Shown: piece after piece, positions 3,755-18,969 of the stretch | How positions within the stretch are numbered: the stretch's first letter is position 1 | Layout: every line of letters begins with the position of its first letter | Assembly: GCA_964632105.1 (NCBI GenBank) | Contig: CAZWFH010000001.1 | Coordinates: 1-50,043, forward strand | DNA from: an uncultured Atribacterota bacterium | GTDB lineage: Bacteria > Atribacterota > Phoenicimicrobiia > Phoenicimicrobiales > Phoenicimicrobiaceae | Length of the DNA stretch: 50,043 nucleotides | Direction: 5' to 3' | Made by a program: the position numbers and the translations under genes | Notes under the pieces: generated by a model | Databases searched by the model: none | What the model was told of the DNA's origin: nothing | Seen by the model: the letters and a program-made list of their open reading frames with translations, nothing else

Positions 3755-4129
3755 TCTATCACTAAATTTACGGGGGTCAAATCTTTATTCTTGACAGATA
3801 CATTTCATTCTTTTTAAATAACAACACATCCTATTTTTTCTATGGTTTAGCTTTCCATTTTACGAAGTCTTCCTTTGGGACGTCTATCGAAAATAATATC
3901 TAAAGCCTCAACCATCCGGGCAAGAAACTCCTCAGATCCTATAGGTTTTCCGCTTAAAGATACCGAATTATTGACTTGGTACACCTTCCCTATTTATTCC
4001 CAATTATATTTTTTTATATTTTGTGAACTTGTGAAGCCTGACCCCGCATCCCCTTATTCAAGTATTTATCATTACAGTTTGGCATATCGAAGAAATTTAA
4101 TTATATTTTTTATAATAAGGAGGTTAATT

Positions 4130-4387
4130 ATGCAAATTTATTTAGTTTTAGCGGCGATAATTTCTATTTCTATTGTCATTTTTTCCTTTCAAAATCCCTT
4201 TCCCCTTATGGTTTATTTTCTTAATTGGGAAGTAAAAAGCTCCCTTACATTCATTTTAATTATTACCTTTATTGCCGGAATATTAACCAGCTTTTTAGTA
4301 ACTACTATATCAAGAATAAAAAGAATGCGACTAATTGCACGTCAGAAAAAGAAAATTGCTGAACTAACCAAAGAAGAAATAAGATAA
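4130..4387 (+). CDS. LapA-domain (DUF1049-like) small membrane protein
   Basis: The internal ATG at 4130 is preceded by AAGGAGG. 85 aa: two TM helices, then the basic tail RIKRMRLIARQKKKIAEL. The longer track ORF from 3875 has no RBS. Confidence 0.6.
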   Translation: MQIYLVLAAIISISIVIFSFQNPFPLMVYFLNWEVKSSLTFILIITFIAGILTSFLVTTISRIKRMRLIARQKKKIAELTKEEIR

Positions 4388-4624
4388 GGGAAGAAATAAA
4401 ATATATAGAATATTAAATCATAATAATAGCACTTTTTATTATAAACTTTAATCACCAAATAAAGATTATGAATCATTTATCCTATATTCCACTAAAATCA
4501 AATAGAAGCTGTGACAAAAGGATATAAAAGTACTTTAATTTTTTTGCCTATTATTCAAAAAAATATGCATAAATTAAATTAGATAAAATAAAGAAATTTT
4601 CTTTTTCTTCTCTTTCTACAACTC

Positions 4625-5558
4625 CTACAACCATTTTTTCTTCCTGAAAAAAATTAGCATTATAATACTTACGACTGCCATTATAAACAAAGCAGCAAAA
4701 TATCCCCAACAAAATTGAAGTTCTGGAATATAGAAGTTCATTCCATAAATGCCAGCAATAAAAGTTAAAGGAATAAATATAGTAGCTATTATGGTTAATA
4801 CTTTCATCACTTCATTCATTTTATTGCTAATACTTGAAAGATAAATATCAAGCATCCCAGAAATCATATCTCGGAATGTTTCTATTGTATCAATTACCTG
4901 AATGCTATGGTCGTAAACATCCCTTAGATATATACCGGTAGATTCTTCAATAAGCGATGATTCTGTTCTTTCTAAGCCGCTTATTATTTCTCTTAAAGGC
5001 CAAACTGATTTACGTAAAAATATCATGTCTCTTTTTAAGTTGTGAATTCCTTGTAAGGTATTTGGTGTAGGATTAGCTACTAATTTTTCCTCCATTTCCT
5101 CAATCTTTTCACCAGTTCCTTCTAAGATTACAAAATAGTTATCAACTATGGCATCTATTCAAGGTATATGCAAGATAATCAGCTCCTGATTTTCTCATTC
5201 TTCCCTTTCCTCTTCTAATTCTCTCTCTGATAGAATTGAAAACGTCACCTTCTCTCTCTTGAAAAGAAATAACGAAATTTAAACCAAGAATTAAGCTAAC
5301 TTGCTCGATCTCTATTTCACTCTTTTTTTCATTATAATAAATCATTTTCAAGATAATAAAGATATAATCTCCAAAATCTTCTATTTTGGGACGTTGATCA
5401 GTATTCATAATGTCTTCTAATAGAAGAGGGTGCAAACCTACATATTCTCCGATTTTTCCCATGATTTCAGCGTCGTGAATGCCATTTATGTTTATCCAGG
5501 TAACAGCGGGCTTATCCCCCAAAAGGAAAACATTCCTCCTGCACCTTGCACCTTGCAA
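4625..5558 (-). pseudogene. corA: Magnesium/cobalt transporter CorA, frameshifted and 5'-truncated
   Basis: The C-terminal ORF carries YGMNF and two TM helices. The N-terminal ORF carries VTWININGIHD...HPLLLEDI. Shifting frame near 5150 restores TL-IDAIVDNYFVILEGTGEKIEEMEEKL. About 45 N-terminal residues are missing, and the only 'start' is a TTG inside a TTGCAAGGTGCAAGG repeat word. Confidence 0.8.
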
Positions 5559-5621
5559 CCTGAAACTTACAGCTCTGACCTACACATACTAAATACTAAC
5601 GACCAACAACTGACGACTATT
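5540..5621. repeat. Mosaic word-repeat patch (CAAG words plus ACTAACGACCAAC words)
   Basis: CACCTTGCACCTTGCAACCTG and AAATACTAACGACCAACAACTGACGACTATTTTG. The latter is nearly identical to 38545-38577. Confidence 0.75.
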
Positions 5622-5951
5622 TTGCAAATTGATATCCACCGCCCGGATAGAATCATCTTTTTAAGAAAAGAAGTTAAACTAACTCCTACAGGATTTTCCT
5701 TGCTCTATCTTCTGGCTCAACATAGAGAAAAGGTAGTTAGTTATGAGGACATTTTAAAGGACTTGTGGAAGGGTGAAGAGGATGCAATTTACACCCGGAT
5801 AAATTATCATATGTGTAAAATTAGAAAAGATATTTCAAAAATAATGGATAAAAAAGAAGATAGCATAAAGAAGATTGAAAATATTTTTAAAGCAATCCCC
5901 GGCAGAGGTTTGATGTTAGACATTAAAGAAAGAGAATTAAAGTTAATTTAA
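5622..5951 (+). CDS. Stand-alone OmpR/PhoB-type winged-helix domain protein (possibly a regulator remnant)
   Basis: IDIHRPDRIIFLRKEVKLTPTGFSLLYLLAQHREKVVSYEDILKDLWKG...IPGRGLMLD fits the trans_reg_C pattern. There is no receiver domain, only a TTG start at 5622 and no clear RBS. The track ORF portion 5430-5621 is antisense to corA. Confidence 0.4.
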   Translation: MQIDIHRPDRIIFLRKEVKLTPTGFSLLYLLAQHREKVVSYEDILKDLWKGEEDAIYTRINYHMCKIRKDISKIMDKKEDSIKKIENIFKAIPGRGLMLDIKERELKLI

Positions 5952-5977
5952 AAGTTTAATTTCTCAATCCATATTTT

Positions 5978-6229
5978 TTATTTTTTTTCTTTATATTTTG
6001 AATATAGTTTACAAAACTCTTCTAAGCTTATCTCTAAATCTTCTCTGATTATTGTACGCAAAAGCCCTTTAGGTATATCTTTATTTTTATGAACGGGGAT
6101 AGTAGTCACTCTTTTTTGGTCTTCAGTTCTTAATCTTACATGGGAGCCCTTCGTTCTAACAATTTTAAAACCCAAAGATTGCAAAAATTTTATAAATTCC
6201 CTGCCTTTAATTGTGGGCAATTTATGCAT
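5978..6229 (-). CDS. hicA: HicA-family mRNA interferase toxin
   Basis: 83 aa. GREFIKFLQSLGFKIVRTKGSHVRL...IPVHKNKDIPKGLLRTIIREDL is a typical HicA signature. Confidence 0.85.
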   Translation of the reverse strand: MHKLPTIKGREFIKFLQSLGFKIVRTKGSHVRLRTEDQKRVTTIPVHKNKDIPKGLLRTIIREDLEISLEEFCKLYSKYKEKK

Positions 6230-6443
6230 TTTTAACTATTTCCAATTCTCTAAATCCTATAAATTTATTAATTTCTTCTACATCAGTTTCTTCAAGACAC
6301 ATCTGAATAACTTCTTTTATGTTTTCTAAAGCCTCATCAATAGTTCCGCCATAAGTATGACAGCCTTTAAATAAAGGACAACTTACAATATAATAACCAT
6401 CCTCATCAAGTTCAATAATTATGGGTAAATGTAATTTTTCCAT
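6222..6443 (-). CDS. hicB: HicB-family antitoxin (UPF0150 fold)
   Basis: Start at ATG 6443, preceded by AGGAGG. IIIELDEDGYYIVSCPLFKGCHTYGGTIDEALENIKEVIQMCLEE. Overlaps the hicA start by 8 nt. Confidence 0.8.
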   Translation of the reverse strand: MEKLHLPIIIELDEDGYYIVSCPLFKGCHTYGGTIDEALENIKEVIQMCLEETDVEEINKFIGFRELEIVKNA

Positions 6444-6552
6444 TTTCCTCCTCTTATTATAACAAGATAACACTTTTTTATTAATTATATCATAAAATCA
6501 AATATTTTATTTTCCAAAGTAAAACCATTTTATTCATAGATATTTCATCGGT

Positions 6553-6606
6553 AGAAATTCGGTTGAAATTCATTTGAAATTCAGTAGAAAACAAGGAGAA
6601 AACTCG
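6553..6606 (+). repeat. Five helically phased 11-bp direct repeats (iteron-like)
   Basis: AGAAATTCGGT TGAAATTCATT TGAAATTCAGT AGAAAACAAGG AGAAAACTCGA, about 80 bp upstream of the Rep-like gene. Confidence 0.55.
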
Positions 6607-6685
6607 ATACAGGAAAAATTTTTTATGATGTAATTATAGTGGTTGGCCAACCGATAATGACTATTTTCTACGAAGGAGAAAATCT

Positions 6686-7264
6686 ATGCAAAAAGAAAAA
6701 TTAAATAGACAAACCAAATCATCCAAAGAAGGTTATATCATTATGCCAAATAATTTTTTAGCAGAATGGATAAGGGTAATGGGTAAAGGTCCGGTTTTAC
6801 TCTATATCCAACTGCTTACCTATTGTCATAAAGAAAAAGATATAGCCTGGCCTGCACTGTCCACTTTAGGCGATAGTCTAAATATGTCCAAAAATAGTCT
6901 GATCAGTTATCAAAAAACTCTCCTTGAGTATGGCCTGATTAAAAAGATCACAGGAAGAAGAACTGCTCAGGGAAATTATCGGTCTAACCTCTATAAGGTT
7001 ACTCCTATAAGGAGTCCAAAAAATGGACCCGGCCAGGTCCAAAAAATGGACACGGGAAGTCCAAAAATTGCACTTGACCAGGTCCAAAATTTGCACCCTA
7101 ACAGTACTAATCTTAACATTACCAAATCAACAACAACAAATGGAGAAAATGTTGTTGTTAATTTTAAAAAATTAAAAGAGAAAGGAGAAGAAAAGATACT
7201 GGCAATTAGAGAACAGTTGATTAACTTAGATATTGAAGAAAGCTTAATTGAGAAATTGCTTTAA
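6686..7264 (+). CDS. Replication initiator-like winged-helix protein (phage O / DnaD-like organiser), ended by an in-frame TAA
   Basis: RBS GAAGGAGA. IMPNNFLAEWIRVMGKGPVLLYIQLLTYC...WPALSTLGDSLNMSKNSLISYQKTLLEYGLIKK fits the HTH_36-type Rep N-terminus. The ORF contains four internal iterons. Confidence 0.6.
   Translation: MQKEKLNRQTKSSKEGYIIMPNNFLAEWIRVMGKGPVLLYIQLLTYCHKEKDIAWPALSTLGDSLNMSKNSLISYQKTLLEYGLIKKITGRRTAQGNYRSNLYKVTPIRSPKNGPGQVQKMDTGSPKIALDQVQNLHPNSTNLNITKSTTTNGENVVVNFKKLKEKGEEKILAIREQLINLDIEESLIEKLL
7014..7096 (+). repeat. Four dyad-symmetric 15-bp iterons at 22-23 bp spacing inside the Rep-like ORF (candidate origin)
   Basis: GTCCAAAAAATGGAC at 7014 and 7037, GTCCAAAAATTGCAC at 7059, GTCCAAAATTTGCAC at 7082. 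An AT-rich stretch follows. Confidence 0.6.
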
Positions 7265-7591
7265 AACTATCCTGCTGAAAAGATCGAAGAGAAAATAGAC
7301 CTGCTTCTTATCAAGAGGAATATCCAAAGTCCCGCCGGCTGGCTGATGGCAGCACTTAAGAATGATTATCAGGATTTGGAACAGGAAGGATTTGATGAAG
7401 AACCTGTAGGAGGAAGCGAGGATCTCAAATGTAGGGGCACGATGCATCGTGCCCTCAACGAATCGGGACAGATAAATCCGTCCCCTACAGAAACAAAGAT
7501 AAACTCTGGAGATAATAAAAAAATCCTCTCCAGTGAAGAAGTAATAAGACGGTTTAAACTTCTAAGACAAGAATTAATGGCAATGAATTAA
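7265..7591 (+). pseudogene. In-frame continuation of the Rep-like gene (C-terminal domain), cut off by a TAA stop
   Basis: Same frame as 6686-7264. NYPAEKIEEKIDLLLIKRNIQSPAGWLMAALKNDYQ is a typical Rep/DnaD-like C-terminal motif. It also carries an in-frame palindromic insertion at 7430-7457. Confidence 0.45.
7430..7457. repeat. TGTAG-family palindromic hairpin (copy inside coding sequence)
   Basis: TGTAGGGGCACGATGCATCGTGCCCTCA. The core GGGCACGATGCATCGTGCCC is a perfect 20-nt palindrome. Confidence 0.8.
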
Positions 7592-7603
7592 TGCACAAGA
7601 ATT

Positions 7604-7660
7604 TGTAGAGACACGGCGTGCCGTGTCTTCTTCTTCACCACGGCACGCCGTGGTGCTACA
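7604..7660. repeat. Compound double-hairpin repeat (type B), copy 1
   Basis: TGTAG-AGACACGGCGTGCCGTGTCT-TCTTCTT-CACCACGGCACGCCGTGGTG-CTACA. A near-identical copy lies at 9311-9367. Confidence 0.85.
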
Positions 7661-7707
7661 TTTCGTATCTTGTAACTAAAAACTATTTTGATAAAGGAGA
7701 AAAATAC

Positions 7708-8022
7708 ATGTCCGAATTAAAAGAATTAATCGCTAAAGCCAAACAAAGAAACGTAAAAGCAATGGAGGAACTGTTCAACCAATTTAAACCTCTGTTGAAA
7801 TCAAGAGCCAGGAAGTATTCTCTATACGGTTTAGAATATGAGGATGTTTTTCAGCAGGCCGCCCTGCTCTTTATCCTGGCTGTTTACCATTATAAAGAAA
7901 AACCTCCTACTACCTTTGCCGGTTATATGAAAAAGAGAATCGACTGGGGATTGTGGGTCTATTATCGGGAATATCTTAAACAACAGATAGAAATATCCAG
8001 TGGCCTAAAAATAGGTGATTGA
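7708..8022 (+). CDS. Sigma-70 family region-2-only protein (RsoA-like half sigma)
   Basis: ATG 7708 follows AAAGGAG. ELFNQFKPLLKSRARKY...YEDVFQQAALLFILAVYHYKEKPPTTFAGYMKKRIDWGLWVYYRE fits sigma region 2.1-2.4. There is no region 4. The track ORF start at 7618 lies inside a hairpin repeat. Confidence 0.7.
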   Translation: MSELKELIAKAKQRNVKAMEELFNQFKPLLKSRARKYSLYGLEYEDVFQQAALLFILAVYHYKEKPPTTFAGYMKKRIDWGLWVYYREYLKQQIEISSGLKIGD

Positions 8023-8027
8023 GACTT

Positions 8028-8055
8028 GTAGGGGCGTATTGCCATACGCCCCTAC
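8028..8055. repeat. TGTAG-family palindromic hairpin in the sigma r2/r4 junction
   Basis: GTAGGGGCGTAT-TGCC-ATACGCCCCTAC: 12-bp arms and a 4-nt loop. Confidence 0.85.
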
Positions 8056-8075
8056 CAAATATCAGAAGGAGGATA

Positions 8076-8282
8076 ATGCTTTTGAGTAGATTAGAAAATA
8101 TCTTACTAAACAATAATTTAGAAGAAAATTATAATCTTTTGACTAAAAGAGAAAGAAAAATTATCAATTTGTATTATCTTGAGGGATATAAGGATAAAGA
8201 GATAGCAAAGATTTATGGTGTTTGCCAGCAATCGGTAAACGAAAGTCGTAAAAAAGGAATAAAAAAATTAAAATATTTTTAA
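8076..8282 (+). CDS. Sigma-70 family region-4-only protein (SigO-like half sigma)
   Basis: ATG 8076 follows AGGAGG (8067-8072). LTKRERKIINLYYLEGYKDKEIAKIYGVCQQSVNESRKKGIKKLK is a region 4.2 HTH. Confidence 0.7.
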   Translation: MLLSRLENILLNNNLEENYNLLTKRERKIINLYYLEGYKDKEIAKIYGVCQQSVNESRKKGIKKLKYF

Positions 8283-8437
8283 TTTTTTTTAAAACTACCC
8301 TGTAAAATCACCTCTTTTTTGCTCTTACTAAGTAGAGGAAGTTTTTAGCTATGCTAAAAACTGTGATGAGTAATAAGTAATGAGTGATAAGCCTAATTAT
8401 TTAAGTAATTGTATACTCATTACCTGTCACATATTAC

Positions 8438-8461
8438 GCAATTAACCTACAGGTTAATTGC
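8438..8461. promoter_or_regulatory. Perfect 11-bp inverted repeat just upstream of the RBS of the 8486 gene
   Basis: GCAATTAACCT-AC-AGGTTAATTGC, followed by TAAGAAGGAGGTG. Confidence 0.4.
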
Positions 8462-8485
8462 TAAGAAGGAGGTGAAAAAAATAAG

Positions 8486-8758
8486 ATGGCCAGCGAATTA
8501 GGAGAAGTAACCAGTTATAAGAGACTGTATATGCAGTTTAGAGATAGTGCAGCTAAAACCATAAATCTAACCTTGAATAATCCCAAGAACGTAGATGATG
8601 GAGACTATGCTGACTTTGCGGCACAAGATGTCGCTGTTGAAGGAGTGATGGATACTATCATCGCCAAGAACATCTTCCATAATGATGGTAATGACTTAGT
8701 AGCCAAAGTAAATGCAAGAATCCTTGATTATAAGTCTACTGATGTTATGGATGTGTAG
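8486..8758 (+). CDS. DUF2922/DUF1659-like small protein
   Basis: 90 aa with RBS GAAGGAGG and no signal peptide. The pattern YKRLYMQFRD...KTINLTLNNPK...MDTIIAKNIF...LVAKVNARIL resembles the small DUF1659/DUF2922 proteins that accompany YvrJ in Firmicutes. Confidence 0.4.
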   Translation: MASELGEVTSYKRLYMQFRDSAAKTINLTLNNPKNVDDGDYADFAAQDVAVEGVMDTIIAKNIFHNDGNDLVAKVNARILDYKSTDVMDV

Positions 8759-8760
8759 GA

Positions 8761-8790
8761 AATAATGGTTAACCATTATTTCCAGTTTTT
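8761..8790 (+). terminator. Putative intrinsic terminator
   Basis: The palindrome AATAATGGTTAACCATTATT is followed by TCCAGTTTTTT. Confidence 0.4.
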
Positions 8791-8809
8791 TGTTTATAGT
8801 TTTTAGTTT

Positions 8810-8837
8810 GTAGGGGCGTATAGCGATACGCCCCTAC
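8810..8837. repeat. TGTAG-family palindromic hairpin
   Basis: GTAGGGGCGTAT-AGCG-ATACGCCCCTAC. It differs from the 8028 copy only in the loop. Confidence 0.85.
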
Positions 8838-8910
8838 CACTTGCAACATGCAACCTGTATTTCTAATTGGTCAATCGGTAAATTAACAAACGAGTGAAAG
8901 GAGGAAATCC

Positions 8911-9291
8911 ATGTTAGAAGCAATATTAAGTAAGTATCTACTCAATGCCCTACTATTATCTCTCGTCTCTATCTTTTACAGTTTTCTAAAGAACAAATTA
9001 GGAGAAGACAGAGCAAGTACCATTAAAGAGGCTATTCTTGCTGCCATGCTCTGGGCTGAAGAAGAGCTGGGGATAGGAAATAGTAATCAGAAATGGGATA
9101 TAGCCTGGAAGAATTTAATAGAGATACTGGCTGATAAGAATATCAGTTTAAGAAAGAGCGAGGAGAAAACAGTAAATATGATGATGAAGGCCAATGTGGA
9201 CAGGATCAATCGGCAGACCTATGATGTCCTGTTGAAGAAGAAATTAATAAAAGATAAAGGCCCTATCCAGCAGTCACTGTTGATTAAATAA
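8911..9291 (+). CDS. Holin-like protein (LL-H-type pattern)
   Basis: 126 aa with RBS AAAGGAGG. An N-terminal TM helix is followed by AILAAMLWAEEELGIGNSNQKWDIAWKNLIEILADKNISL, which resembles LL-H family phage holins. It sits directly upstream of a peptidoglycan peptidase gene. Confidence 0.45.
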   Translation: MLEAILSKYLLNALLLSLVSIFYSFLKNKLGEDRASTIKEAILAAMLWAEEELGIGNSNQKWDIAWKNLIEILADKNISLRKSEEKTVNMMMKANVDRINRQTYDVLLKKKLIKDKGPIQQSLLIK

Positions 9292-9310
9292 CCTCTCGTG
9301 AGGAGGATTT

Positions 9311-9367
9311 TGTAGAGACACGGCGTGCCGTGTTTTCTTTTTCACCACGGCACGCTGTGGTGCTACA
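9311..9367. repeat. Compound double-hairpin repeat (type B), copy 2
   Basis: TGTAGAGACACGGCGTGCCGTGTTTTCTTTTTCACCACGGCACGCTGTGGTGCTACA. Confidence 0.85.
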
Positions 9368-9461
9368 CTCACTCCTTGCAACTCATATCTTGTATTTTAA
9401 TTGGTCAATCGGTAAATTAGTGAATTGGTCAATTAACTAACGACTGAAAGGAGTTTGTTCC

Positions 9462-9842
9462 ATGCAAATGTTAAATAGTATAAACAATATAAACATCGCT
9501 CCACACTTCAACTTATCTGAATTTGCCTGTCCCTACTGTAAGAGAATAATGTTACGTCCCCTTCTCTTAGAAAAATTAGAAAAACTAAGAAAGATAATTG
9601 AAAAACCGATTCACATCACTTCCGGATATCGCTGCTCGAGATATAACCATCAAATTGGAGGGGTAACAAACAGCTACCACTGTATCGGACTGGCAGCAGA
9701 TATTAAAGTAAAAGATATCAATCTGATTACCCTTTTGGAGATATGTGAGAATATAGATTTTACTGGAATCGGGTTTTATGAGAAGAAGAACTTCCTGCAT
9801 CTGGATGTGCGGCCTACCGAACGCACCCGCTGGAGGGAATAA
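9462..9842 (+). CDS. Peptidase M15A (Peptidase_M15_3) zinc cell-wall peptidase, endolysin-like, no signal peptide
   Basis: HFNLSEFAC...ITSGYRCSRYNHQIGGVTNSYHCIGLAADI...FLHLDVR supplies the H/D/H zinc ligands of the LAS/M15 fold. Confidence 0.8.
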   Translation: MQMLNSINNINIAPHFNLSEFACPYCKRIMLRPLLLEKLEKLRKIIEKPIHITSGYRCSRYNHQIGGVTNSYHCIGLAADIKVKDINLITLLEICENIDFTGIGFYEKKNFLHLDVRPTERTRWRE

Positions 9843-9843
9843 A

Positions 9844-9884
9844 AAGTTGCCCAAAGGTGCCTGGCACCTTTGGGCAACTTTTTG
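9844..9884 (+). terminator. Strong stem-loop with T-run
   Basis: AAGTTGCCCAAAGGTGCC-T-GGCACCTTTGGGCAACTT followed by TTT. It ends 17 nt before the next start codon. Confidence 0.7.
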
Positions 9885-9900
9885 AGAAAGGAGTGAAGTA

Positions 9901-10170
9901 ATGGATGTTAAAACATTGTCTGAAGTGATCGCTAATCAGGGCTTCCCTATCGCCTTATCGATACTCTTAATCTTTCGCATCGATAGATTTATGCAGGAGA
10001 TAGTAACTGCCCAGAAAGATGGTTATCGTCAAATATTAGAAAATACTAAAGAGATACATAATACAATCACTAGCTTAAACCAGCAAAATCGAGAATACTA
10101 TTCGTTGCGCTTTTCGGAAGTGCAGAAAGAACTCTCCGGAATGAAGATAGAGTTGGGAAAAATTGAATAG
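9901..10170 (+). CDS. YvrJ-like small membrane protein
   Basis: VIANQGFPIALSILLIFRIDRFMQEI matches the YvrJ-family core (N-GFPI-hydrophobic-LL-R-I/E). RBS AAAGGAG. Confidence 0.45.
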   Translation: MDVKTLSEVIANQGFPIALSILLIFRIDRFMQEIVTAQKDGYRQILENTKEIHNTITSLNQQNREYYSLRFSEVQKELSGMKIELGKIE

Positions 10171-10192
10171 AAATAAAAATGCAATAAAATCA

Positions 10193-10243
10193 GGGTAAGC
10201 TATAAAAAAATTAGCGTCTTTTCTTTAGCTTACCCTTTTTTTA
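10193..10243 (+). terminator. Putative terminator closing the island
   Basis: GGGTAAGCTA...TAGCTTACCC followed by TTTTTTT. The loop is long. Confidence 0.5.
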
Positions 10244-10426
10244 TTTTGTCATCAAATTTGCCAATATGTAACTACCTTATAACTATATTTCAAATCATAA
10301 TATAAATTAAGATAAATCCCTTGAGTCTTAGAAATAATTTTAAAAATTTAGCGAATAGATAATATGATTTATATACTGATAGTTAATAATCTAATCTCTC
10401 TTTTCTAAATAATTACAGTCACAGTT

Positions 10427-11323
10427 TTAATCGAATTTTATATATTTCTTGTTAAATTCAGCAACCCCGATTACCGTATCTGCTCCGCCATAATAGACCA
10501 GGATTCTGTCACCAATCTCTACCTGACCACAGCTAAATACCACTTTGGGGATATATCCATTTATTTCCCAATCGAGTTCGGGTTCCAAGATTGGCTGAAT
10601 CTGTCTGGCCAGAACCTTTGAAGGGTCATCTAAATCGAGTAATGCTGCCCCCAGGCAGTAACCTTTTTCCTTGCTTGTGCCGTGGTATATTAAAAACCAA
10701 CCCTGCTCTGTTTTGATGGGAGGACCGGCTATTCCAATTTTATTATATTCCCAATCTGAATCAGGTATGGGCTTCATTATAATCTTATGATCATACCAGG
10801 TCTCTAAATCATCAGAATAGGCTATCCAGATATCCGGTTCCCTTCGGTGAAACATCACATACTTGCCTTTAATCTTCTCGGGGAACAGGGAAGCATCTTT
10901 ATTGGGTTCATCAAGGACTATTCCCTGTCTTTCCCAGTGGATAAGGTTTTTGGAAGTTGCCAGACAAATTCTGAAGTCTTCCGGGAATCTACCCCTATAT
11001 CCGGTATACATCATATAAAATATATCACCTATTTTAATTATTCGGGGGTCTTCGGGACCCCGAGCCTCCTGTTCTACATCATTGGGTAAAATTGGTTGTT
11101 CTAAGCGGTTGAAGTGAATCCCGTCTTTACTTACTGCATAGCCCAAGCGATTAATATAGGGTCCTTCTTTACCATTGGGGGCAATATCGGTAGCTCGGTA
11201 GATCATATGTACCAAACCATTGTCATATATTGCGGCACAGTTAAATACTGCGGTTGCTTCCCAGGGATGCTCTTTTTTTGGTAATAAGATAGGTTGTTTT
11301 GATAGTCTTTTTAGTTTTATCAT
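10427..11323 (-). CDS. GH130 family beta-mannoside phosphorylase/glycosidase (short form)
   Basis: 298 aa. NCAAIYDNGLVHMIYRA, GPEDPRI, YMMYTGY, DASLFPEKI, YHG and YYGGADT are five-bladed propeller GH130 hallmarks. Confidence 0.85.
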   Translation of the reverse strand: MIKLKRLSKQPILLPKKEHPWEATAVFNCAAIYDNGLVHMIYRATDIAPNGKEGPYINRLGYAVSKDGIHFNRLEQPILPNDVEQEARGPEDPRIIKIGDIFYMMYTGYRGRFPEDFRICLATSKNLIHWERQGIVLDEPNKDASLFPEKIKGKYVMFHRREPDIWIAYSDDLETWYDHKIIMKPIPDSDWEYNKIGIAGPPIKTEQGWFLIYHGTSKEKGYCLGAALLDLDDPSKVLARQIQPILEPELDWEINGYIPKVVFSCGQVEIGDRILVYYGGADTVIGVAEFNKKYIKFD

Positions 11324-12534
11324 ATAACTACCTCTCTCAATTTTTGATCATTTTTGATATCTTTTATCATATCTTTCCATAATAAGCGAATTTTAAAATA
11401 TTCTGGAACTAACTTTTTTGCCCTTTCTTTGGCATAATTAATAAACTCTCGGGCTTCCTTTTCAGGTTCTGTTTCAGCTATGTTTTTATCAGATAAGACC
11501 TTTGCAAGTTTCTCCTCTGAATCAGAAAAAACTTTACCCTCGAAAAAACTACCCGGATATGGCATTAATTCCTCAATATCTATATTATTTAAATTATTAT
11601 ATTTTTTTACTTGCTCAATTTTTTCTTTTTCATAAATAAATCGCAAGATATCTTGTTTTAGTTGGGAAATATTAGCTCCATTATGGGTATTTTTATAATC
11701 AGGTTGCAAATGAGTTATATTTAATTCTTTATCTAAAAAGAAATTAAGCCCTTCCATTTTTGCATTTATTAAATAATCAATATCTTCTCCTCTGGTATTG
11801 TAGGGGTCAAAAGATATTCTTTCTATAGTTGTGCGGGGAAATACCATATTTCCACCAAAGACTACAGGGGTTTTAACCAAACGCCCCTCTGTATGGTCTA
11901 ATCTATCATAGGTTAAATCCATAATGTAAGATTTTTTGTCAAAGAGATTTTCTAATTTCTCTTGTCCCTCAACTTTTAATCTATGATTCCCTTCTCTATC
12001 TAAATAGTAGCCAGCTACTCCTGCTATAAAATCTCCTTTGTATTCTTTCCCCACATATTCAGCTGCTTTATATAAATAATTACTATCATTAATTACTTCA
12101 TCATCATCAATGCCAACAACCACATCACTATTATTAATATAAGACACAATCAATTGTAAGTTTCTTATATTATTATAATTTTCCAGGTTAATCTCTTGTA
12201 AAATCTTGTAATGCCCAAGTTCAAATAATCTTTCTCTCAATATCTTTAATTTACTATAGGAAAAATGTTTTATCCCAAATTTATTCTTAAACTTATCAAT
12301 GATTCCCTGAACTCTTTTCTCTACTTTTTCCGCAATCTCCACATTTGTGGAAGCTGTTATTACCAAAATATTAAAATTAGGATAATTTATCTTCCTAAAA
12401 CTTTCCAATGTTCTGGCTAATGTTCCATCTAAATCAAGGGGAGTTGGATGATCGAAAATGAAACTCTCCCTCTTACTCTTAATATCGGTAGGCCAGGTCC
12501 AATAAGTCGGTATAACTACAGTTACTTTCTGCAT
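11320..12534 (-). CDS. GT-A fold glycosyltransferase-like protein (family uncertain)
   Basis: 404 aa. VVIPTYW at the N-terminus, DxD-like GIDDDEV, GGNMVF and RGEDIDY. Overlaps the downstream GH130 start by 4 nt. Confidence 0.4.
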   Translation of the reverse strand: MQKVTVVIPTYWTWPTDIKSKRESFIFDHPTPLDLDGTLARTLESFRKINYPNFNILVITASTNVEIAEKVEKRVQGIIDKFKNKFGIKHFSYSKLKILRERLFELGHYKILQEINLENYNNIRNLQLIVSYINNSDVVVGIDDDEVINDSNYLYKAAEYVGKEYKGDFIAGVAGYYLDREGNHRLKVEGQEKLENLFDKKSYIMDLTYDRLDHTEGRLVKTPVVFGGNMVFPRTTIERISFDPYNTRGEDIDYLINAKMEGLNFFLDKELNITHLQPDYKNTHNGANISQLKQDILRFIYEKEKIEQVKKYNNLNNIDIEELMPYPGSFFEGKVFSDSEEKLAKVLSDKNIAETEPEKEAREFINYAKERAKKLVPEYFKIRLLWKDMIKDIKNDQKLREVVI

Positions 12535-12605
12535 TCTAAATCCTCCAATAAATATATATTTATTAACCGTAACATTTTTTAATTTATCAAAATTTTCTTA
12601 TATAT

Positions 12606-14198
12606 TTAGAGTTCTTTTAAAGGAATAATGTCACATAATCTTGCAGAGGCTACCCCTATTACTTGATCTCCTCCGCCATAATACATCATAAGTTCATCAG
12701 TATCATTAATTATTTGATCTGAATTTTTATTTTTAGGGACAATTCCATTAGTAAATACTACATTAGGAGCCCAGCCATAAAATTCATAATTCTTTTCCGG
12801 AACAAATATTGGCTCAGGAGAACGGTATATTACTTTTGTCGGATCATTCAAATCTAATAATGCTGCACCTATCATATAACTCCTTCTTCCTTTATTAATT
12901 CCAACTCCATGATAAATCAATAGCCATCCATATCTACTCTTTAAAACCTGTGCCCCGGCCCCTACCCGTTCAGAATCCCACATTCTGGGCCGGGTTTTAA
13001 TAATTTCTACAAAATTGTTTTTCCAGGGTGGTTCCAGAGTTTCGGAAAAACTAATGGCGATATTTCGTATTTTTCCCCGTATTGGCCTTCTTAATAATAC
13101 ATATTTTCCATCTATTTTTTCAGGGAATAACACTGCATTTCGATCGTATACATTAGAGAACAAGGGACCATATTTTATCCATTTTTTCTTAATTTCTGAT
13201 TTTGGAGTATTAGGTATTTTAATAAAATCTTGAATCTTAATCGATGCCATTGCTATCTGAAGTACATTACTATAGGCACTATAAGTCATATAAATCCTAT
13301 CGTCAATTAAGGTTAATCTTGGGTCTTCACACCCTCCTTTCTCTCGATCTCGATTTTTCAATACCTCTGTTTCATCAAGTTCATATTCAGTATCTGGTGT
13401 AAAGATAGGATAACTTAACCTTCCATCTATATTAATACCATCTCTACTCCAGGCAAGACCTAAACGAGAGATATTATCATTTCCTAAAGTCCGATATATA
13501 ATATAAGTTACACCATCTATCCGAATTGCAGCAGGATTATAAACTAACTTTGCTTCCCAATAATTCTCTGGAATCGGTTTTAAAATAGGATTTCCTTCAT
13601 ACCTCTTTAAAATTCCAACTTTTTCAAAAAGAATATTCAGTGGTTGATCAAATAGTTTCTTACGAAACTGATAACTTGATCCACTTATATAAAAAACCTC
13701 AAAATTTGAAAACTCTAATAATTTATTAAAGGTTATTTCTCTGCCATCAATATTAAATATTTTATTCTTGATTATTTCACCTACGCTCGAACATACTCTA
13801 ACTTTTCTAATTATTCCTTTATCTAAAATTATCAAATCTGTTAGAAATTGTTCTTTTTCGGTTTTTACTTTTTCTTCATCTAATTGTTCTACCAAAAAAA
13901 GTATACTTTTTGATTTTGCTTCAATTTCCTGTATTATGCAATCAATTATTATAGCGCTTCTTTCTATTTTCCCTTTTAAAATCTTCGTCTTTCCTAATAT
14001 TGCCGCACCTTTCTCTACCTGGACATTTTCTCCTAACTCAACTTCTTTTCCCCAAAGAATTCCACCTTTTAACTCTATCCCTAAACTATTCCTTAGTGCA
14101 GAGTTTTTAAATAATTTTTTTATTTTTTCACGTAATTCCTGGGTTCGATCATAATCTGACTTTTTATTCATGAATTCTGATAAATTTAACTGATCCAT
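12606..14198 (-). CDS. GH130 family phosphorylase with a ~190-aa N-terminal extension
   Basis: 530 aa. The C-terminal ~330 aa carry GH130 motifs (NPAAIRIDGVTYIIYR, GCEDPRL, YMTYSAY, NAVLFPEKI, YHG, YYGGGD). I could not place the N-terminal region. Confidence 0.8.
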   Translation of the reverse strand: MDQLNLSEFMNKKSDYDRTQELREKIKKLFKNSALRNSLGIELKGGILWGKEVELGENVQVEKGAAILGKTKILKGKIERSAIIIDCIIQEIEAKSKSILFLVEQLDEEKVKTEKEQFLTDLIILDKGIIRKVRVCSSVGEIIKNKIFNIDGREITFNKLLEFSNFEVFYISGSSYQFRKKLFDQPLNILFEKVGILKRYEGNPILKPIPENYWEAKLVYNPAAIRIDGVTYIIYRTLGNDNISRLGLAWSRDGINIDGRLSYPIFTPDTEYELDETEVLKNRDREKGGCEDPRLTLIDDRIYMTYSAYSNVLQIAMASIKIQDFIKIPNTPKSEIKKKWIKYGPLFSNVYDRNAVLFPEKIDGKYVLLRRPIRGKIRNIAISFSETLEPPWKNNFVEIIKTRPRMWDSERVGAGAQVLKSRYGWLLIYHGVGINKGRRSYMIGAALLDLNDPTKVIYRSPEPIFVPEKNYEFYGWAPNVVFTNGIVPKNKNSDQIINDTDELMMYYGGGDQVIGVASARLCDIIPLKEL

Positions 14199-14207
14199 AC
14201 TTATTTA

Positions 14208-14714
14208 TTATCCTTTCAACCCCGCTGTTTTTACCCCTTCGATGAAATATTTTTGTGCTAATACAAAGACTATTACTATTGGTAAAATGGACATCGCTGA
14301 GGCTGCCATCATTAATGGCCATTGGGTTAGTCCTTCTCGGAAACCCTTAAAACCAGCAATACCAAGAGCAAGGACTTTCATATTATCCGTGTTTATTACA
14401 ATAAGCGGGTAAGTAAAATCATTCCAGGCAGAACCAAAGGTAAATATAGCCATCGCTGCCAGTGCTGGCTTTACCAATGGTAACATTATACTCCAAAATA
14501 TTCTAAAAGGACTTGCTCCATCTATAATAGCTGCCTCTTCTAATTCCTTAGGTATGGTAAGGAAAAACTGTTTCAATAAAATACACTGAAAGCCCCACCG
14601 AATGCTCCCAGTGCATGAGGAATAATCAGAACCTGATAGGTGTTAATCCAATGTAAATTTTTTTTACTCAAGATGAAAATTAGCAAATTTAAATAGATTC
14701 AGAATTCGTTTCAT
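14208..14714 (-). pseudogene. Carbohydrate ABC permease remnant (internal deletion plus frameshift)
   Basis: The C-terminal half is intact (EAAIIDGASPFRIFWSIMLP...). An upstream frame reads LHWINTYQVLIIPHALGAFGGAFSVFY*. A 16-aa N-terminal stub MKRILNLFKFANFHLE* follows an AGGAGG at 14714. The middle TM segments are missing. Confidence 0.7.
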
Positions 14715-14868
14715 CGCCTCCTTTCCCCCTTTTGTTTGATTCATACTTCCTCAATACTACTTCTAATAATGTAATTTTACTTTTGTATTTACTGTTAAAA
14801 TCTTTTTTCTATATAATTTATATTTTCCCTCCTCTTCTCAAATTCTTTTATATTAATATTCTCCTATA

Positions 14869-15999
14869 TTAACCTAATTTTTTAACGCTCTTCCTAAATA
14901 TCATTTTAGGGATTAATGCTATGTGCACCTTATCATTTTTGTTTTCAACCTTCGTATTAAAATCAAATTTCATCTTTGGAAATTCTTCTAAATAACCTAA
15001 TTCTCTTAATATTATATTCGCTCCTAAAACACCCATATCATATATAGGTTGTGAAAATGTAGTTAAATCAAGATACTCAGATAAGGGGTTATCATCAAAA
15101 CCTATTAATGAAACATCATTTGGTACTTTTAAACCAGCTTCTTCTAAAGCTTTTTCTGCCCCTGCAGCTTGATAATCACTTGCTGCAAAGATTGCTGTTA
15201 ATGAATTAGTATCTTCTTGTAATAAAAATCTTTTCATTGCTTTATTTCCGGCTTTAAAGGTAAAATGATCTATAGAAATAAATTTATTATCTAATGCAAT
15301 TCCTTTGTCTTGGTAAAACTTTTTAACACCTAATAATCTTTCATAACCTGAGGTAGTGGATTGAACCCCCATAATATAACCAATAGATCTATGGCCTTGT
15401 TGAAAAAGATAATTAACCGCGTTATAAGCTGCAGAAACATTATCAATATAAACAGAGGATAAATTATCTCTTTGTGAATCGATTAATACAATGGGATAAT
15501 TTTTGGGAATTAAATCAGGTTTTAATTTAGATTCCGGTAATAAACTGATAATTACACATCCATCAGTTTTGCTCCGAATAGAGAAATTTTGAATTCTTTT
15601 AATAAGTGTTTTCACTTCTTCCGCATTGTCTAACCAGTTTAATATCATGTCAAAGTTAAATTTTCTTAACTCAGTTTGAATGCCTCTAACCACATTCGTT
15701 CTAAAACCTGTAAAATCATGTAATAAATATACTGTTATTGTATTTGTTTTTTTAGAAGAAAGACTCCTGGCTATAGCATGAGGTTGATAACCTAATTCTT
15801 TAATAACTTCAATTACTCTCGCCTTGGTTGCGGAACTTACATGCTCTCTTTTATTTAAAACCCTGGATACTGTTCCTATCCCAACTCCAGCCTTTTTTGC
15901 TACCTCTTTAATCTTTATCCTTCCGATGTTTATCACTCCTTTCAAACTTACTATTTTTTCATTGATTATAAATTGTAGAAAAATTCCCTTAATCATCAA
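14869..15999 (-). CDS. LacI/GalR family transcriptional regulator (start uncertain)
   Basis: IKEVAKKAGVGIGTVSRVLN HTH plus a periplasmic-binding-fold sugar domain. The RBS AAAGGAG lies 8 nt from an ATC codon (GRIKIKEV...). The only canonical start is a TTG-ATG 27 codons upstream, which has no RBS. Confidence 0.85.
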   Translation of the reverse strand: MMIKGIFLQFIINEKIVSLKGVINIGRIKIKEVAKKAGVGIGTVSRVLNKREHVSSATKARVIEVIKELGYQPHAIARSLSSKKTNTITVYLLHDFTGFRTNVVRGIQTELRKFNFDMILNWLDNAEEVKTLIKRIQNFSIRSKTDGCVIISLLPESKLKPDLIPKNYPIVLIDSQRDNLSSVYIDNVSAAYNAVNYLFQQGHRSIGYIMGVQSTTSGYERLLGVKKFYQDKGIALDNKFISIDHFTFKAGNKAMKRFLLQEDTNSLTAIFAASDYQAAGAEKALEEAGLKVPNDVSLIGFDDNPLSEYLDLTTFSQPIYDMGVLGANIILRELGYLEEFPKMKFDFNTKVENKNDKVHIALIPKMIFRKSVKKLG

Positions 16000-16134
16000 G
16001 ATTTTTTAAAATTCCGATGCCACAAAGTATAATTTTATCAAAGTTGTTACTTGGAAACGTTTCCAATTTATCTTAAAAAACAACTATTTATTTTCTATAT
16101 TAACATACTACTAATATAAATTGCAAATTATAAT

Positions 16135-17865: not shown

Positions 17866-17932
17866 ATTATAACACTTCTCCGATATGGTTTTTCAAAAAT
17901 AATAGCAGATTATTTAATAAGGTCCTATCGTT

Positions 17933-18946
17933 CTAAGTAGAATTTCTGATAATTAATTTTGGCTGAAAAATAATTCTTTGGTGTGTATAGTTCTCAGGAT
18001 TTTTCAAATGTTGATTCAAAATTTTTATTGCCCCTTCTGCCATCTTTTTTACAGACTGGCTAATTGTTGTCAAGGCTGGATAATAGTACTCTGATAATGG
18101 AATATTATCAATTCCAAGAATTGCAATATCCCGGGGTATTTTTAGTCCTTTTTCCTGAATAGCATGATAAACTCCTATTGCCCTCTGATCACCGGAGACA
18201 AAAAGGGCATCAGGAACTTCTTCTTCTAAAATATTCTTCATTTTTTCATAAGCAAATTTGGGGTTCATAATTCCATAATCAATATGCCTTAATTCACTCT
18301 TGATATGATAATCATTAAAAGCTTGAATAAATCCTTTTGCTCTATCCTGGTTTACCGTAAAATTTTCATCCCCCAAAAAAAATCGAATAGACTTATTCCC
18401 TCTTTTGATAAGATGCTCAGCTCCCAAATAACCTGCTTTAACATTATCAAGGTTAACAAAAGAAGTAGATTCATAGACATTATCCCTACCGACAATAACA
18501 AAAGGAATATCCCTTTCCACAAGATAGTCAATCCGGCGATCAATTTCCCGAGTATCAAAAATTATAGCACCGTCTGCAAAGCCATTTTTAAGCAAATAAA
18601 AACCATCATGTTTATTTTCTTCAACTTTGGAAGCTGAAGACTTTGAAACTATTAATTTATACCCTAATCTATTGGCTTCACTATCTAAAAACCGGATAAA
18701 AACATTATGGAAATTTCCTATATAATTTGCCGCATTTTTTTCTACAAAGACCATCAAAATCCCGGTTGTTTTTTTTCTAAGTGATCTGGCAATAAGATTA
18801 ACCTGGTACCCGGTTGATTTAATGATTTTTAATATTTTATCTCTTGTTTCTTTCTTTACTTTTTTTTCTTCATTTACAACTCTGGAAACCGTCCGTGGGG
18901 AAACGTTGGCGATTTTTGCGATGTCTTTAACAGTATATTCCTTTAT
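17933..18946 (-). CDS. LacI/GalR family regulator whose HTH lies upstream of the track ORF; no canonical start codon
   Basis: The minus frame upstream of 18757 reads KEYTVKDIAKIANVSPRTVSRVVNEEKKVKKETRDKILKIIKSTGYQVNLIARSLRKK, in frame with the track ORF. RBS GGGGGTGA lies 7 nt before an ATA codon at 18946-18944. No ATG, GTG or TTG occurs between the upstream stop and the HTH. Confidence 0.75.
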   Translation of the reverse strand: MKEYTVKDIAKIANVSPRTVSRVVNEEKKVKKETRDKILKIIKSTGYQVNLIARSLRKKTTGILMVFVEKNAANYIGNFHNVFIRFLDSEANRLGYKLIVSKSSASKVEENKHDGFYLLKNGFADGAIIFDTREIDRRIDYLVERDIPFVIVGRDNVYESTSFVNLDNVKAGYLGAEHLIKRGNKSIRFFLGDENFTVNQDRAKGFIQAFNDYHIKSELRHIDYGIMNPKFAYEKMKNILEEEVPDALFVSGDQRAIGVYHAIQEKGLKIPRDIAILGIDNIPLSEYYYPALTTISQSVKKMAEGAIKILNQHLKNPENYTHQRIIFQPKLIIRNST

Positions 18947-18969
18947 TTCAAATCACCCCCATAAAATCA

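Follow-up and report, generated by a model that had tools for sequence, protein, structure and literature searches.

A compact cassette family of Atribacterota that may join a split sigma factor to holin- and endolysin-like genes

We analysed a 50,043-nt stretch of DNA from an uncultured Atribacterota bacterium (contig CAZWFH010000001.1, positions 1 to 50,043; hereafter the window, to which all coordinates refer unless another locus is named). Near its left end, between a broken corA gene and a glycan locus, lies an island of ~4.7 kb (5574–10250). It carries a fragment encoding a winged helix-turn-helix (wHTH) domain, the hicAB pair, a gene for a Rep-like initiator, two genes for the parts of a sigma factor (σ2 and σ4), a DUF2922 gene and genes for a holin-like protein, an M15 peptidase and a YvrJ-like protein. 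A first-pass annotation had listed these genes, and we recovered all of them by open reading frame (ORF) listing and by searches with Pfam and PHROGs profiles. Related loci, which we coded L001 onward, contain the cassette in forms that we call long and short. On balance, we favour the reading that the island is a partly decayed copy of a compact cassette family specific to Atribacterota, which would derive from a replicon and carry an operon that is driven by a split σ and combines feedback with an envelope output.

From 6686 onward, all genes point in one direction and have AGGAG-type ribosome-binding sites, as the first-pass annotation had read from the sequence. Its further statement that capsid, tail, portal, terminase and integrase genes are missing agrees with the ORF listing and with the Pfam and PHROGs searches, where none was found among the window genes. 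The base composition of the region is not distinct from its surroundings; only the GC skew flips sign, because the genes switch strand. The right end of the cassette is marked by a terminator-like hairpin (inverted repeat at 10183–10245, plus strand). In blastn comparisons, the homology to other long copies stops at 10145–10169, and only L046 continues to 10247. We also searched both flanks of the island for direct repeats and found none. Furthermore, when we examined the ends of the window copy and those of four full copies for tRNA targets, terminal inverted repeats and att-type direct repeats, only AT-rich chance matches came up, and an Rfam search of 5300–10500 gave no match.

The left part of the island resembles a replication module that appears to be dead in the window: its helicase is cut down to a wHTH tail, hicAB is inserted and rep has a nonsense codon, so that the window copy has neither an intact initiator nor an intact helicase. 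The wHTH stump (5574–5951, plus strand, within an ORF of 5430–5951; Pfam Trans_reg_C, 8.9e-13) corresponds to the last ~125 residues of a Hel308-like helicase-wHTH protein of 933–992 aa, of which ~800 N-terminal residues are deleted. At the nucleotide and the protein level, the homology to the 3′ end of the helicase genes of L011 and L041, and also of the shorter copies in L032 and L035, starts at ~5574–5588. Full-length cassette helicases combine the domains DEAD, Helicase_dom4_arc and Trans_reg_C (Hel308 in NCBIfam, 2.3e-58), and their ORFs are intact in three lineages (933–982 aa in L011, L041 and L049). The L011 helicase (3907–6855 of that locus) is Hel308/Ski2-like, and it is unusual for a helicase of this kind to be fused to an OmpR-type wHTH domain. 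Next to the stump lie hicA (5978–6229, minus strand; Pfam HicA_toxin, 2.8e-20) and hicB (ORF 6222–6473, gene to ~6443, minus strand; HicB_lk_antitox, 4.3e-9), which overlap by 8 nt and, as adjacent genes with HicA and HicB domains, form a toxin-antitoxin pair. Since the helicase-rep spacer of L011, L032, L041 and L064 contains no hicAB, the pair appears to be a later, secondary insertion between the helicase stump and rep.

The rep gene (6686–7591, plus strand) encodes a Rep/DnaD-like initiator (PHROG 186, 8.9e-13; also PHROGs 26369 and 270 and HTH_36) and is predicted to be inactivated. An in-frame TAA at 7262–7264 splits it into an N-terminal ORF of 192 aa (6686–7264) and a C-terminal remainder of 108 codons in the same frame. 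At the position of this codon, the Rep of L011 (326 aa) has a lysine. Because the full-length orthologues (283–331 aa) run uninterrupted across it, we read the window gene as a nonsense pseudogene. We rejected the ORF at 7346–7591 as a separate gene, as it is the Rep C-terminus, in frame and cut off by this stop codon. The N-terminal domain of Rep matches Bacillus and Paenibacillus plasmid proteins that are annotated as HTH or DnaA N-terminal domain-containing; against phage records Rep had no match, and against plasmid records only its N-terminal wHTH domain matched.

Iterons had been claimed next to the Rep-like gene, and they are real, but the clearest array lies inside the Rep reading frame. 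There, a repeat search found four GTCCAAAAA(A)TGGAC/TGCAC units of the GTCCAAAAAATGGAC type at a spacing of 22–23 nt (7013–7096, plus strand), a putative origin. Upstream of rep, we read three copies of GAAATTC at 11-nt spacing (6554–6582), followed by a conserved block (6585–6650, both plus strand), and this region matches by blastn the sequences just 5′ of the rep genes of L018, L032, L035, L041 and L048. Of the seven rep genes examined, six have such an internal array (L018 is the exception), at a similar place and with a lineage-specific repeat sequence. Thus, the locus combines a wHTH initiator with at least three direct repeats in helical phase, as in an iteron-controlled replicon.

Downstream of rep, two genes encode stand-alone sigma-70 domains: σ2 (7708–8022, plus strand, 104 aa; Sigma70_r2, 1.8e-5) and σ4 (8076–8282, plus strand, 68 aa; Sigma70_r4_2, 8.8e-9, and Sigma70_r4, 4.7e-8), the latter with its own ribosome-binding site and with a TIGR02937 match that passes the cutoff. 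Both align in order on a single phage sigma profile, phrog_351, and their best NCBIfam matches are SigH/SigF and the generic extracytoplasmic function (ECF) superfamily. In each of the 12 distinct long loci, σ2 ends in a stop codon and σ4 is an ORF of its own, with varied spacers and in all three relative frames. Homologues of σ2 fall into 803 clusters, with lengths of 100–115 aa throughout the 120 listed. When we scanned 1.84 billion representative sequences with HMMER, σ2 had 14 close matches, all of at most 110 aa, and the next tier at 23–43% identity consisted mostly of single-chain sigmas of ~160–260 aa. The idea that σ2 and σ4 are fused by a frameshift or by read-through was dropped, as a stop in the σ4 frame stands directly before 8019 and as other loci have long spacers in other frames. 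Because the ORFs are separate in all long loci and no recoding route is visible in the window, σ2 and σ4 appear to be a genuine two-subunit σ, analogous in its domain layout to SigO-RsoA.

Directly after the σ4 stop codon, an alignment of 10 long loci revealed a promoter-like block, AAAATCACCTCTTTTTTG..TAAGTAGAGG (8304–8338, plus strand), of the general form AAAATCACCTCTTTTTTG-(n)-CTA(TA)TAAGTAGAGG. It is followed in most long copies by a 5′ hairpin, GTTTTTAGC-TAT-GCTAAAAAC (8341–8361, plus strand), which has a compensatory pair change in L011. A pattern search found the block once per locus, just after σ4, in 12 of 15 long loci, while three slight variants escaped the pattern; the same search found it in no short copy. 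In L050, the block directly precedes the YvrJ-like gene. From this position and conservation, we infer that the block may be the cognate promoter of the split σ and that the hairpin may stabilise the 5′ end of the transcript. A minus-strand ORF behind the block was dropped as a candidate gene because it has no conserved start codon.

The next gene encodes a DUF2922 protein similar to SroB (8486–8758, plus strand; Pfam, 8.5e-16) and is better conserved than any other cassette gene. Of the 416 clusters matched by the protein, the 120 listed are 83–97% identical, and the named ones are mostly from Candidatus Atribacteria or Atribacterota. The gene is preceded by a leader (8415–8485, plus strand) that consists of ACTCATTAC-type heptads, a hairpin GCAATTAACC-TACA-GGTTAATTGC (8438–8461) and a perfect Shine-Dalgarno (SD) sequence. 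Pairing in the hairpin is 99%, five of the 11 pairs have compensatory changes, G-U pairs occur, and the covariation score was reached by none of 500 shuffles. These features argue for a structure at the RNA level.

In intact copies, a DUF1659 gene lies between σ4 and DUF2922. The family thus has an adjacent DUF1659-DUF2922 pair, whereas in the window DUF2922 stands alone and DUF1659 has been deleted just upstream of its leader. In L079, one copy of the leader precedes DUF1659 and another precedes DUF2922, and the window leader matches the DUF2922-proximal copy at 92%. Because each gene has its own leader in L079, the loss of DUF1659 fits a recombination between the two leader copies. Directly after DUF2922, there is a hairpin with a T-run that resembles a terminator or attenuator (8758–8793, plus strand). 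As a hairpin with a different sequence recurs at this position in several further long loci, the arrangement would fit a DUF1659-DUF2922 transcript that is abundant, with read-through to the holin, M15 and YvrJ genes being attenuated.

Between the long and the short forms, DUF1659 and DUF2922 are 76–97% identical, whereas holin, M15 and YvrJ are only 36–58% identical. We rejected recent gene conversion as the cause of the DUF2922 conservation, as dS between long and short copies is 1.3–1.4 and thus near saturation, with a dN/dS of ~0.05. Since the synonymous divergence is still high, the conservation is explained by constraint at the protein level. An AlphaFold2 model of DUF2922 from 46 close homologues reached a pLDDT of 54.8, too poor for a fold search, and sequence searches of the PDB with DUF2922 and DUF1659 returned nothing meaningful.

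The last three genes encode proteins that could act on the cell envelope. The holin-like protein (8911–9291, plus strand, 126 aa) has one N-terminal transmembrane (TM) helix (~4–23) and matches PHROG 6918 (holin, 2.4e-6) and, at the borderline, Phage_holin_6_1 (3.9e-5). The M15 zinc peptidase (9462–9842, plus strand) is of the endolysin type (Peptidase_M15_3, 6.8e-24; PHROG 894 endolysin, 1.6e-35). Its zinc motifs SxHxxGxAxD (read SYHCIGLAAD) and HLD are intact, and it is ~40% identical to phage endolysins and distantly matches the carboxypeptidase 1lbu. It has no hydrophobic N-terminus and no signal peptide; phage-type holin-endolysin pairs likewise have a hydrolase with preserved catalytic motifs and no signal peptide. 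The YvrJ-like membrane protein (9901–10170, plus strand, 89 aa) has a TM segment at 9–27 and a long polar, probably helical tail. Its Pfam YvrJ score is 20.5 bits in the window against a cutoff of 29.5, and the L044 orthologue passes with 31.8 bits. The YvrJ-family gene is always the last in the cassette.

The gaps between these genes had been described as filled with hairpin repeats, and the hairpins are indeed enriched. Five of the seven perfect GC-rich hairpins (at least 9 bp) of the 50 kb window fall into 7435–8837, and eight terminator-like sites were observed compared to 3.2±1.8 in shuffled sequences. Several of them resemble repetitive extragenic palindromic (REP) elements. One GC-rich GTAG...CTAC hairpin is inserted in the 3′ region of rep (7431–7490, core 7435–7454); this element, which encodes 'RGTMHRA', is also present in the L011 rep, and an identical core occurs at 49924–49943. 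A double hairpin is present in two copies, at 7599–7660 and within 9306–9453 (plus strand), where 9306–9367 is 94% identical to the first copy (there were no chance matches in shuffles). A hairpin with a 12-bp stem (8026–8057) lies in the σ2-σ4 spacer, and the same element is found in L049 and L050. Another hairpin (8808–8839) is followed by a CTTGCAAC...AATTGGTCAATCGGTAAATTA leader (together 8808–8903, plus strand), which is duplicated before M15 next to the second double hairpin. Between M15 and the YvrJ-like gene, there is a perfect palindrome with 21-nt arms and A and T tracts that resembles a bidirectional terminator (9841–9883). In L023 and L046, the M15-YvrJ spacer is only 15–16 nt long and has no hairpins, and the same holds for the holin-M15 spacer of L023. 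Apart from the hairpins after σ4, in the leader and after DUF2922, the intergenic hairpins appear to be variable insertions similar to REP elements or miniature inverted-repeat transposable elements (MITEs).

Further REP-like hairpins with GTAG and GC-rich stems lie outside the island (28750–28769, 41280–41310 and 49924–49943); they are genome-wide and concentrated in the cassette. A 36-nt motif, ACTAAATACTAACGACCAACAACTGACGAC, occurs at 5588–5623 and at 38542–38577 with 92% identity. Short tandem motifs (TAGTCGTTAG, ACTCATTAC, GGTTAGCTGG and CTTGCAAC) occupy the intergenic spacers of many Atribacterota loci.

We collected relatives of the cassette by gene-context look-ups and by scans of GTDB genomes and JGI metagenomes, and mapped them with tblastn. 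The long form (~7.5–8.3 kb) comprises helicase-wHTH, Rep, σ2, σ4, DUF1659, DUF2922, holin-like, M15 and YvrJ-like genes and is found, for instance, in L011, L041 and L064, in L032 with a shortened helicase and in L049, where the contig ends after σ4. The short form (~2.1 kb) is limited to the genes from DUF1659 to YvrJ, which follow a conserved promoter of the σ70 consensus type (TTGACT-17-TAATAT, with TG upstream). In a third form (L050–55), helicase, Rep, σ2 and σ4 are followed directly by the YvrJ-like gene, and the segment from DUF1659 to M15 is absent. The loci L050–L055 belong to one polymorphic species: helicase and Rep are present upstream in some samples and partly or wholly gone in others, and L051–L053 carry an IS21 IstB gene there. 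In L017 (11801–12873), two YvrJ-like genes stand tail to tail where two cassettes abut, and an IS5/IS1182-like DDE transposase replaces rep and helicase upstream of σ2.

A single genome can hold several copies of the cassette. The single amplified genome (SAG) SCGC AAA255-G05 has it on five contigs, one copy with σ2 and σ4 and four without them, and a metagenome-assembled genome of Phoenicimicrobium has it on two contigs. The copies within the SAG are 58–93% identical at the nucleotide level and are thus old paralogues. Many family matches come from short contigs or from bins that were assigned to other phyla, since a multi-copy element disrupts assemblies. The flanking genes differ in almost every locus, so the cassette is present at many genomic positions. 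Long copies are often flanked by defence or insertion sequence (IS) genes, including AbiE, a Schlafen-like ATPase, a phospholipase D (PLD) nuclease, restriction-modification (R-M) genes, IS5-like elements and IS21. In L011 (Candidatus Phoenicimicrobium), the long cassette (12113–19439) lies ~7 kb from a tRNA-Pro gene, and the intervening DNA holds a short integrase fragment, an HTH gene and a HinfI-type R-M system; a larger island linked to the tRNA may carry this cassette as cargo. Capsid, tail, terminase and integrase genes are absent from the intact long copies. A description of the cassette was not found in the searchable literature.

Next to the island, the window carries a GH130 gene, and we compared this site in 36 metagenome loci whose GH130 orthologue is 85–94% identical and whose sequence extends at least 1 kb beyond the GH130 stop codon. 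Cassette genes in the convergent orientation of the window are present in 14 of these loci, whereas the other 22 have no part of the cassette. The states range from a complete cassette (L064) over copies from σ4 to YvrJ or from DUF1659 to YvrJ up to the contig end, to YvrJ with an M15 stump (L122 and L071; also L075, which has just 888 nt of downstream sequence and is not counted in the 36), YvrJ alone (L080), rep fragments alone (L059, L089 and L127) and a helicase fragment alone (L125). As related loci hold states from complete to fragments or no cassette at all, we conclude that in this lineage the cassette is old at the GH130 site yet is being lost piecemeal. The reconstruction of an empty site failed, as the sequence common to occupied and unoccupied loci (L064 9175–9668) is a dispersed repeat of ~450 nt. 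This repeat, with GTCATTGCGAG...GCAATC and GGGGGACATTCTTCTTTTGTATTCCCGCACTTA modules, also occurs in L019, L033, L062, L085 and L102 beside cassettes and GH130, and has a MITE-like look.

To quantify selection, we calculated pairwise dN/dS with the Nei-Gojobori method across the family and discarded a mis-aligned σ4 pair (window versus L041). In all seven genes from σ2 to YvrJ, dS was close to saturation. The ratios are 0.07–0.09 for σ2, 0.24–0.36 for σ4, 0.08–0.16 for DUF1659, 0.03–0.09 for DUF2922, 0.07–0.20 for the holin-like gene, 0.14–0.20 for M15 and 0.03–0.14 for the YvrJ-like gene. Purifying selection thus acts on each of the seven. Helicase and Rep change more rapidly (~0.16–0.45), yet they are intact in several lineages.

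From the observed architecture, copy number, conservation, selection, iterons, RNA hairpins and decay events, we propose how an intact cassette might work. The helicase-wHTH protein and the iteron-binding Rep/DnaD-like initiator would together form a replication module. When both σ2 and σ4 are made, they would assemble on core RNA polymerase and fire the block downstream of σ4, which would drive the operon of DUF1659, DUF2922, holin-like, M15 and YvrJ-like genes. Because a hairpin follows DUF2922, DUF1659 and DUF2922 would be the most abundant products, and they could act as an antagonistic feedback pair on the σ circuit, after the model of SroA/SroB and SigS. Read-through past the hairpin would yield the holin-like protein, by which the cytoplasmic, signal-less M15 peptidase could reach the wall. 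The outcome would be lysis or a local opening of the wall, with YvrJ as a membrane partner. As the short copies have a housekeeping-type promoter and coexist within a genome, the holin/M15 pair cannot be lytic in a simple, constitutive way; it must be attenuated, triggered or non-lytic. In the window, σ2, σ4, the promoter block, DUF2922, holin, M15 and YvrJ are all intact.

Several observations weigh against this picture of a replicon-derived cassette driven by its own σ. The assignment of the promoter comes from conservation and position, and its hexamers fit no known σ consensus. In the short copies, a σ70-type promoter precedes the same five genes, so the split σ is not required for the five-gene core. 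The window copy has no SroA-like partner, and its circuit may be locked off or non-functional. The Holin_LLH score of 24.4 bits is just below the Pfam threshold of 24.9. Furthermore, the search for an integrase, a transposase, att repeats, terminal repeats or an adjacent tRNA found none, which leaves mobility without a mechanism. Among the 2.9 M contigs of IMG/VR, there is no close relative of DUF2922 (searched with the sequence and with an alignment), σ2 or the YvrJ-like protein, and tblastn with DUF2922 gave no match in 50,697 GenBank phage records or 72,556 PLSDB plasmid records. Because of these missing relatives, an episomal or viral form is unsupported.

We compared this reading to four other explanations, each of which fits the data less well. 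The first-pass annotation had offered a domesticated regulatory-plus-lysis/export module as one of its two options, and this comes close to what the comparative data show. In its full form, the five-gene core would be a chromosomal operon of the host for non-lytic wall remodelling or type-10-like protein release, maybe joined to a stress-response regulatory pair, and Rep, helicase and σ would be the leftover of a delivery vehicle. The short copies, which have a σ70-type promoter but neither replication nor σ genes and of which four coexist in one genome, speak for this, as does the purifying selection on all five genes. The identity between forms of 76–97% for DUF2922 and DUF1659 compared to ~50% for holin and M15 would fit an interaction with conserved host machinery. 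The annotation had also held that the same gene string, conserved at this position under purifying selection, would contradict a mobile element; the selection is there and the cassette has been kept beside GH130 in 14 related populations, but 22 of the 36 loci have none and several have only stumps, which is unlike an essential host operon, and the family occupies many other positions in several copies per genome. With intact helicase and Rep and co-varying iterons in several long-copy lineages, flanks that are often defence- or IS-rich variable regions and no obvious secreted cargo, we regard a purely domesticated operon as unlikely. The other option, an extremely reduced prophage or plasmid remnant, holds for the origin from a replicon-type element, the missing structural and integrase genes and the decayed left part, but a reduced prophage it is not, since intact relatives are equally compact. 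As L011, L041 and L064 also lack structural genes (and likewise L032 with its truncated helicase and the left part in L049), this absence is native to the family and not a product of decay. One could still see the island as an inert relic of a prophage or plasmid, a replication module and a lysis cassette drifting to loss, given the truncated helicase, the rep nonsense codon, the DUF1659 deletion, the hicAB and REP-like insertions, the frameshifted neighbour corA and the fact that every stage of deletion is seen in related loci. However, seven ORFs are intact with strong ribosome-binding sites, the promoter block and both RNA hairpins are retained, and the complete relatives leave no larger parent prophage. 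The purifying selection across the family on the genes from σ to YvrJ and the 83–97% identity of DUF2922 in the 120 listed clusters do not agree with the status of a remnant for σ2, σ4, DUF2922, holin, M15 and YvrJ, and we consider an inert relic quite improbable.

The long copies adjoin AbiE, the Schlafen-like ATPase, the PLD nuclease, R-M genes and hicAB, and the core of the cassette helicase matches the HamB profiles of Hachiman (6.5e-26). The island could thus be imagined as an abortive-infection system in which a HamB/Hel308-like helicase-wHTH protein senses phage DNA and turns on the split σ, with the holin and endolysin genes, which plausibly kill the cell, as a suicide output. This is very improbable in our view: HamA (DUF1837) is present in no cassette locus, so the HamAB pairing of Hachiman is missing, no core gene matches any of 5,027 PADLOC models, a Rep with iterons in its own gene points to replication and not to sensing, and the short copies have neither helicase nor σ. 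A phage satellite, or a capsid-less virus-like element that is packaged by a helper, would also be expected to bring its own replication genes, a late-type σ and lysis genes, to have no structural genes and to occur in multiple and patchy copies. However, an integrase, packaging or capsid-redirecting genes and att sites are all missing; DUF2922, σ2 and the YvrJ-like protein have no relative in IMG/VR, and DUF2922 and Rep are unmatched in phage records. We therefore give hardly any weight to a satellite.

The neighbourhood of the island is itself variable. On its left, corA (4625–5558, minus strand; ORF listing and profile search) is broken, as the first-pass annotation had seen, by a single frameshift near 5140–5150, where the frame shifts between '...ADYLAYTLN' and 'IDAIVDNYF...'. 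Because the gene calls on an independent metagenome contig (L003) split corA likewise, the gene is probably a true pseudogene rather than the product of a faulty assembly. On the right, the glycan locus (10427–14198, minus strand) consists of two GH130 phosphorylase paralogues (298 and 530 aa) that flank a GT2-like protein of 404 aa. In related populations, there are 3–6 kb of extra DNA between GH130 and the cassette (L079, L082 and L102) or ~6.6 kb between the glycosyltransferase (GT) gene and GH130 (L059 and L082). As this extra DNA differs between related populations, the chromosome stretch at the glycan locus is a variable region.

So far, DUF1659, DUF2922 and YvrJ have been recognised solely as SigS or SigO-RsoA targets. 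In the cassette family, they share an operon with a peptidoglycan peptidase and a holin-like protein, and this leads to a direct, testable hypothesis on the output of such sigma factors. A wider and rather doubtful suggestion is that the σ-lysis islands of Atribacterota are an undescribed class of capsid-less, integrase-less, self-replicating elements under the control of a natural two-subunit σ, whose invariant core (DUF1659, DUF2922, YvrJ and the holin/M15 pair) would be an ancestral, complete module for σ feedback and envelope breaching, with sigO-rsoA-yvrJ (Bacillus subtilis) and sigS-sroAB (Staphylococcus aureus) of the Firmicutes as its fragments. If true, this would give a concrete function to three orphan families, DUF1659, DUF2922 and YvrJ. 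Outside the phylum of SigO-RsoA, the family offers natural σ2/σ4 pairs by the hundreds and a candidate for their cognate promoter, which could be useful for studies of σ-domain cooperation and as parts for orthogonal AND gates. The combination of a multi-copy cassette, extremely conserved small proteins and broken assemblies is also relevant to genomic work on Atribacterota, a phylum that is abundant in subsurface sediments and almost uncultured.

Lastly, we compared the cassette to known systems. Its replication part resembles replicons of the lambda O/ori type, with a wHTH initiator and three to four helically phased repeats inside its own coding sequence, where the repeat co-varies with the protein between lineages. 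In contrast to these and to DnaD-like phage and plasmid organisers, the partner is a Hel308-like superfamily 2 (SF2) helicase with a wHTH tail and not a DnaB/DnaC-type protein, and the window copy is inactivated. The intergenic hairpins resemble REP elements in having a 5′ GTAG and a GC-rich imperfect palindrome that ends in CTAC, and in that their presence varies between orthologous spacers, although one copy lies inside the rep reading frame and a RAYT transposase, for which no aimed search was made, was not seen.

The output genes resemble phage holin-endolysin cassettes and type 10 secretion systems in that a small TM protein stands beside a signal-less, M15-type peptidoglycan peptidase. 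ChiWX of Serratia is such a holin/endopeptidase pair of type 10 secretion. Here, however, there is no surrounding phage, the copies are multiple and chromosomal, some of them behind a consensus σ70-type promoter, and no spanin was recognised. In clostridia, holin-dependent release loci are under the control of σ factors, namely UviA-UviB-Bcn on plasmid pIP404 and TcdR-TcdE in the PaLoc. The cassette shares with them a dedicated small σ, a holin-like protein, the context of a small replicon or island and the co-option of holin/endolysin genes. It differs in that it has no large toxin or bacteriocin cargo, in its two-piece σ and in its intact M15 endopeptidase.

The two closest regulatory parallels come from Firmicutes. 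SigO-RsoA (YvrI-YvrHa) of B. subtilis is a two-subunit σ that drives yvrJ (PMC8103513; PMC10028694); it is the only characterised two-subunit bacterial sigma, and split sigmas are described as an open area in reviews (PMC7826278). As in the cassette, σ2 and σ4 domains are on two polypeptides from adjacent genes and a YvrJ-family gene belongs to the locus, which in the L050–55 variant comes first behind the promoter block. Unlike SigO-RsoA, the cassette is from Atribacterota, has the order σ2 then σ4 and in NCBIfam matches only generic SigH/SigF/ECF profiles; its operon has DUF1659, DUF2922, holin and M15 genes without an oxalate decarboxylase, and its long form is linked to a replication module. 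In S. aureus, SigS directly drives sroAB (DUF1659 and DUF2922) as its top direct target, and the pair feeds back on the sigS mRNA by acting on its stability (bioRxiv 10.1101/2022.10.19.512975). The cassette differs in that its σ is split, that holin, M15 and YvrJ follow the pair, that the window copy has lost DUF1659 and that a feedback would be assumed by analogy. It shares with SigS-SroAB a small alternative σ directly upstream of a DUF1659-DUF2922 pair with perfect SD sequences.

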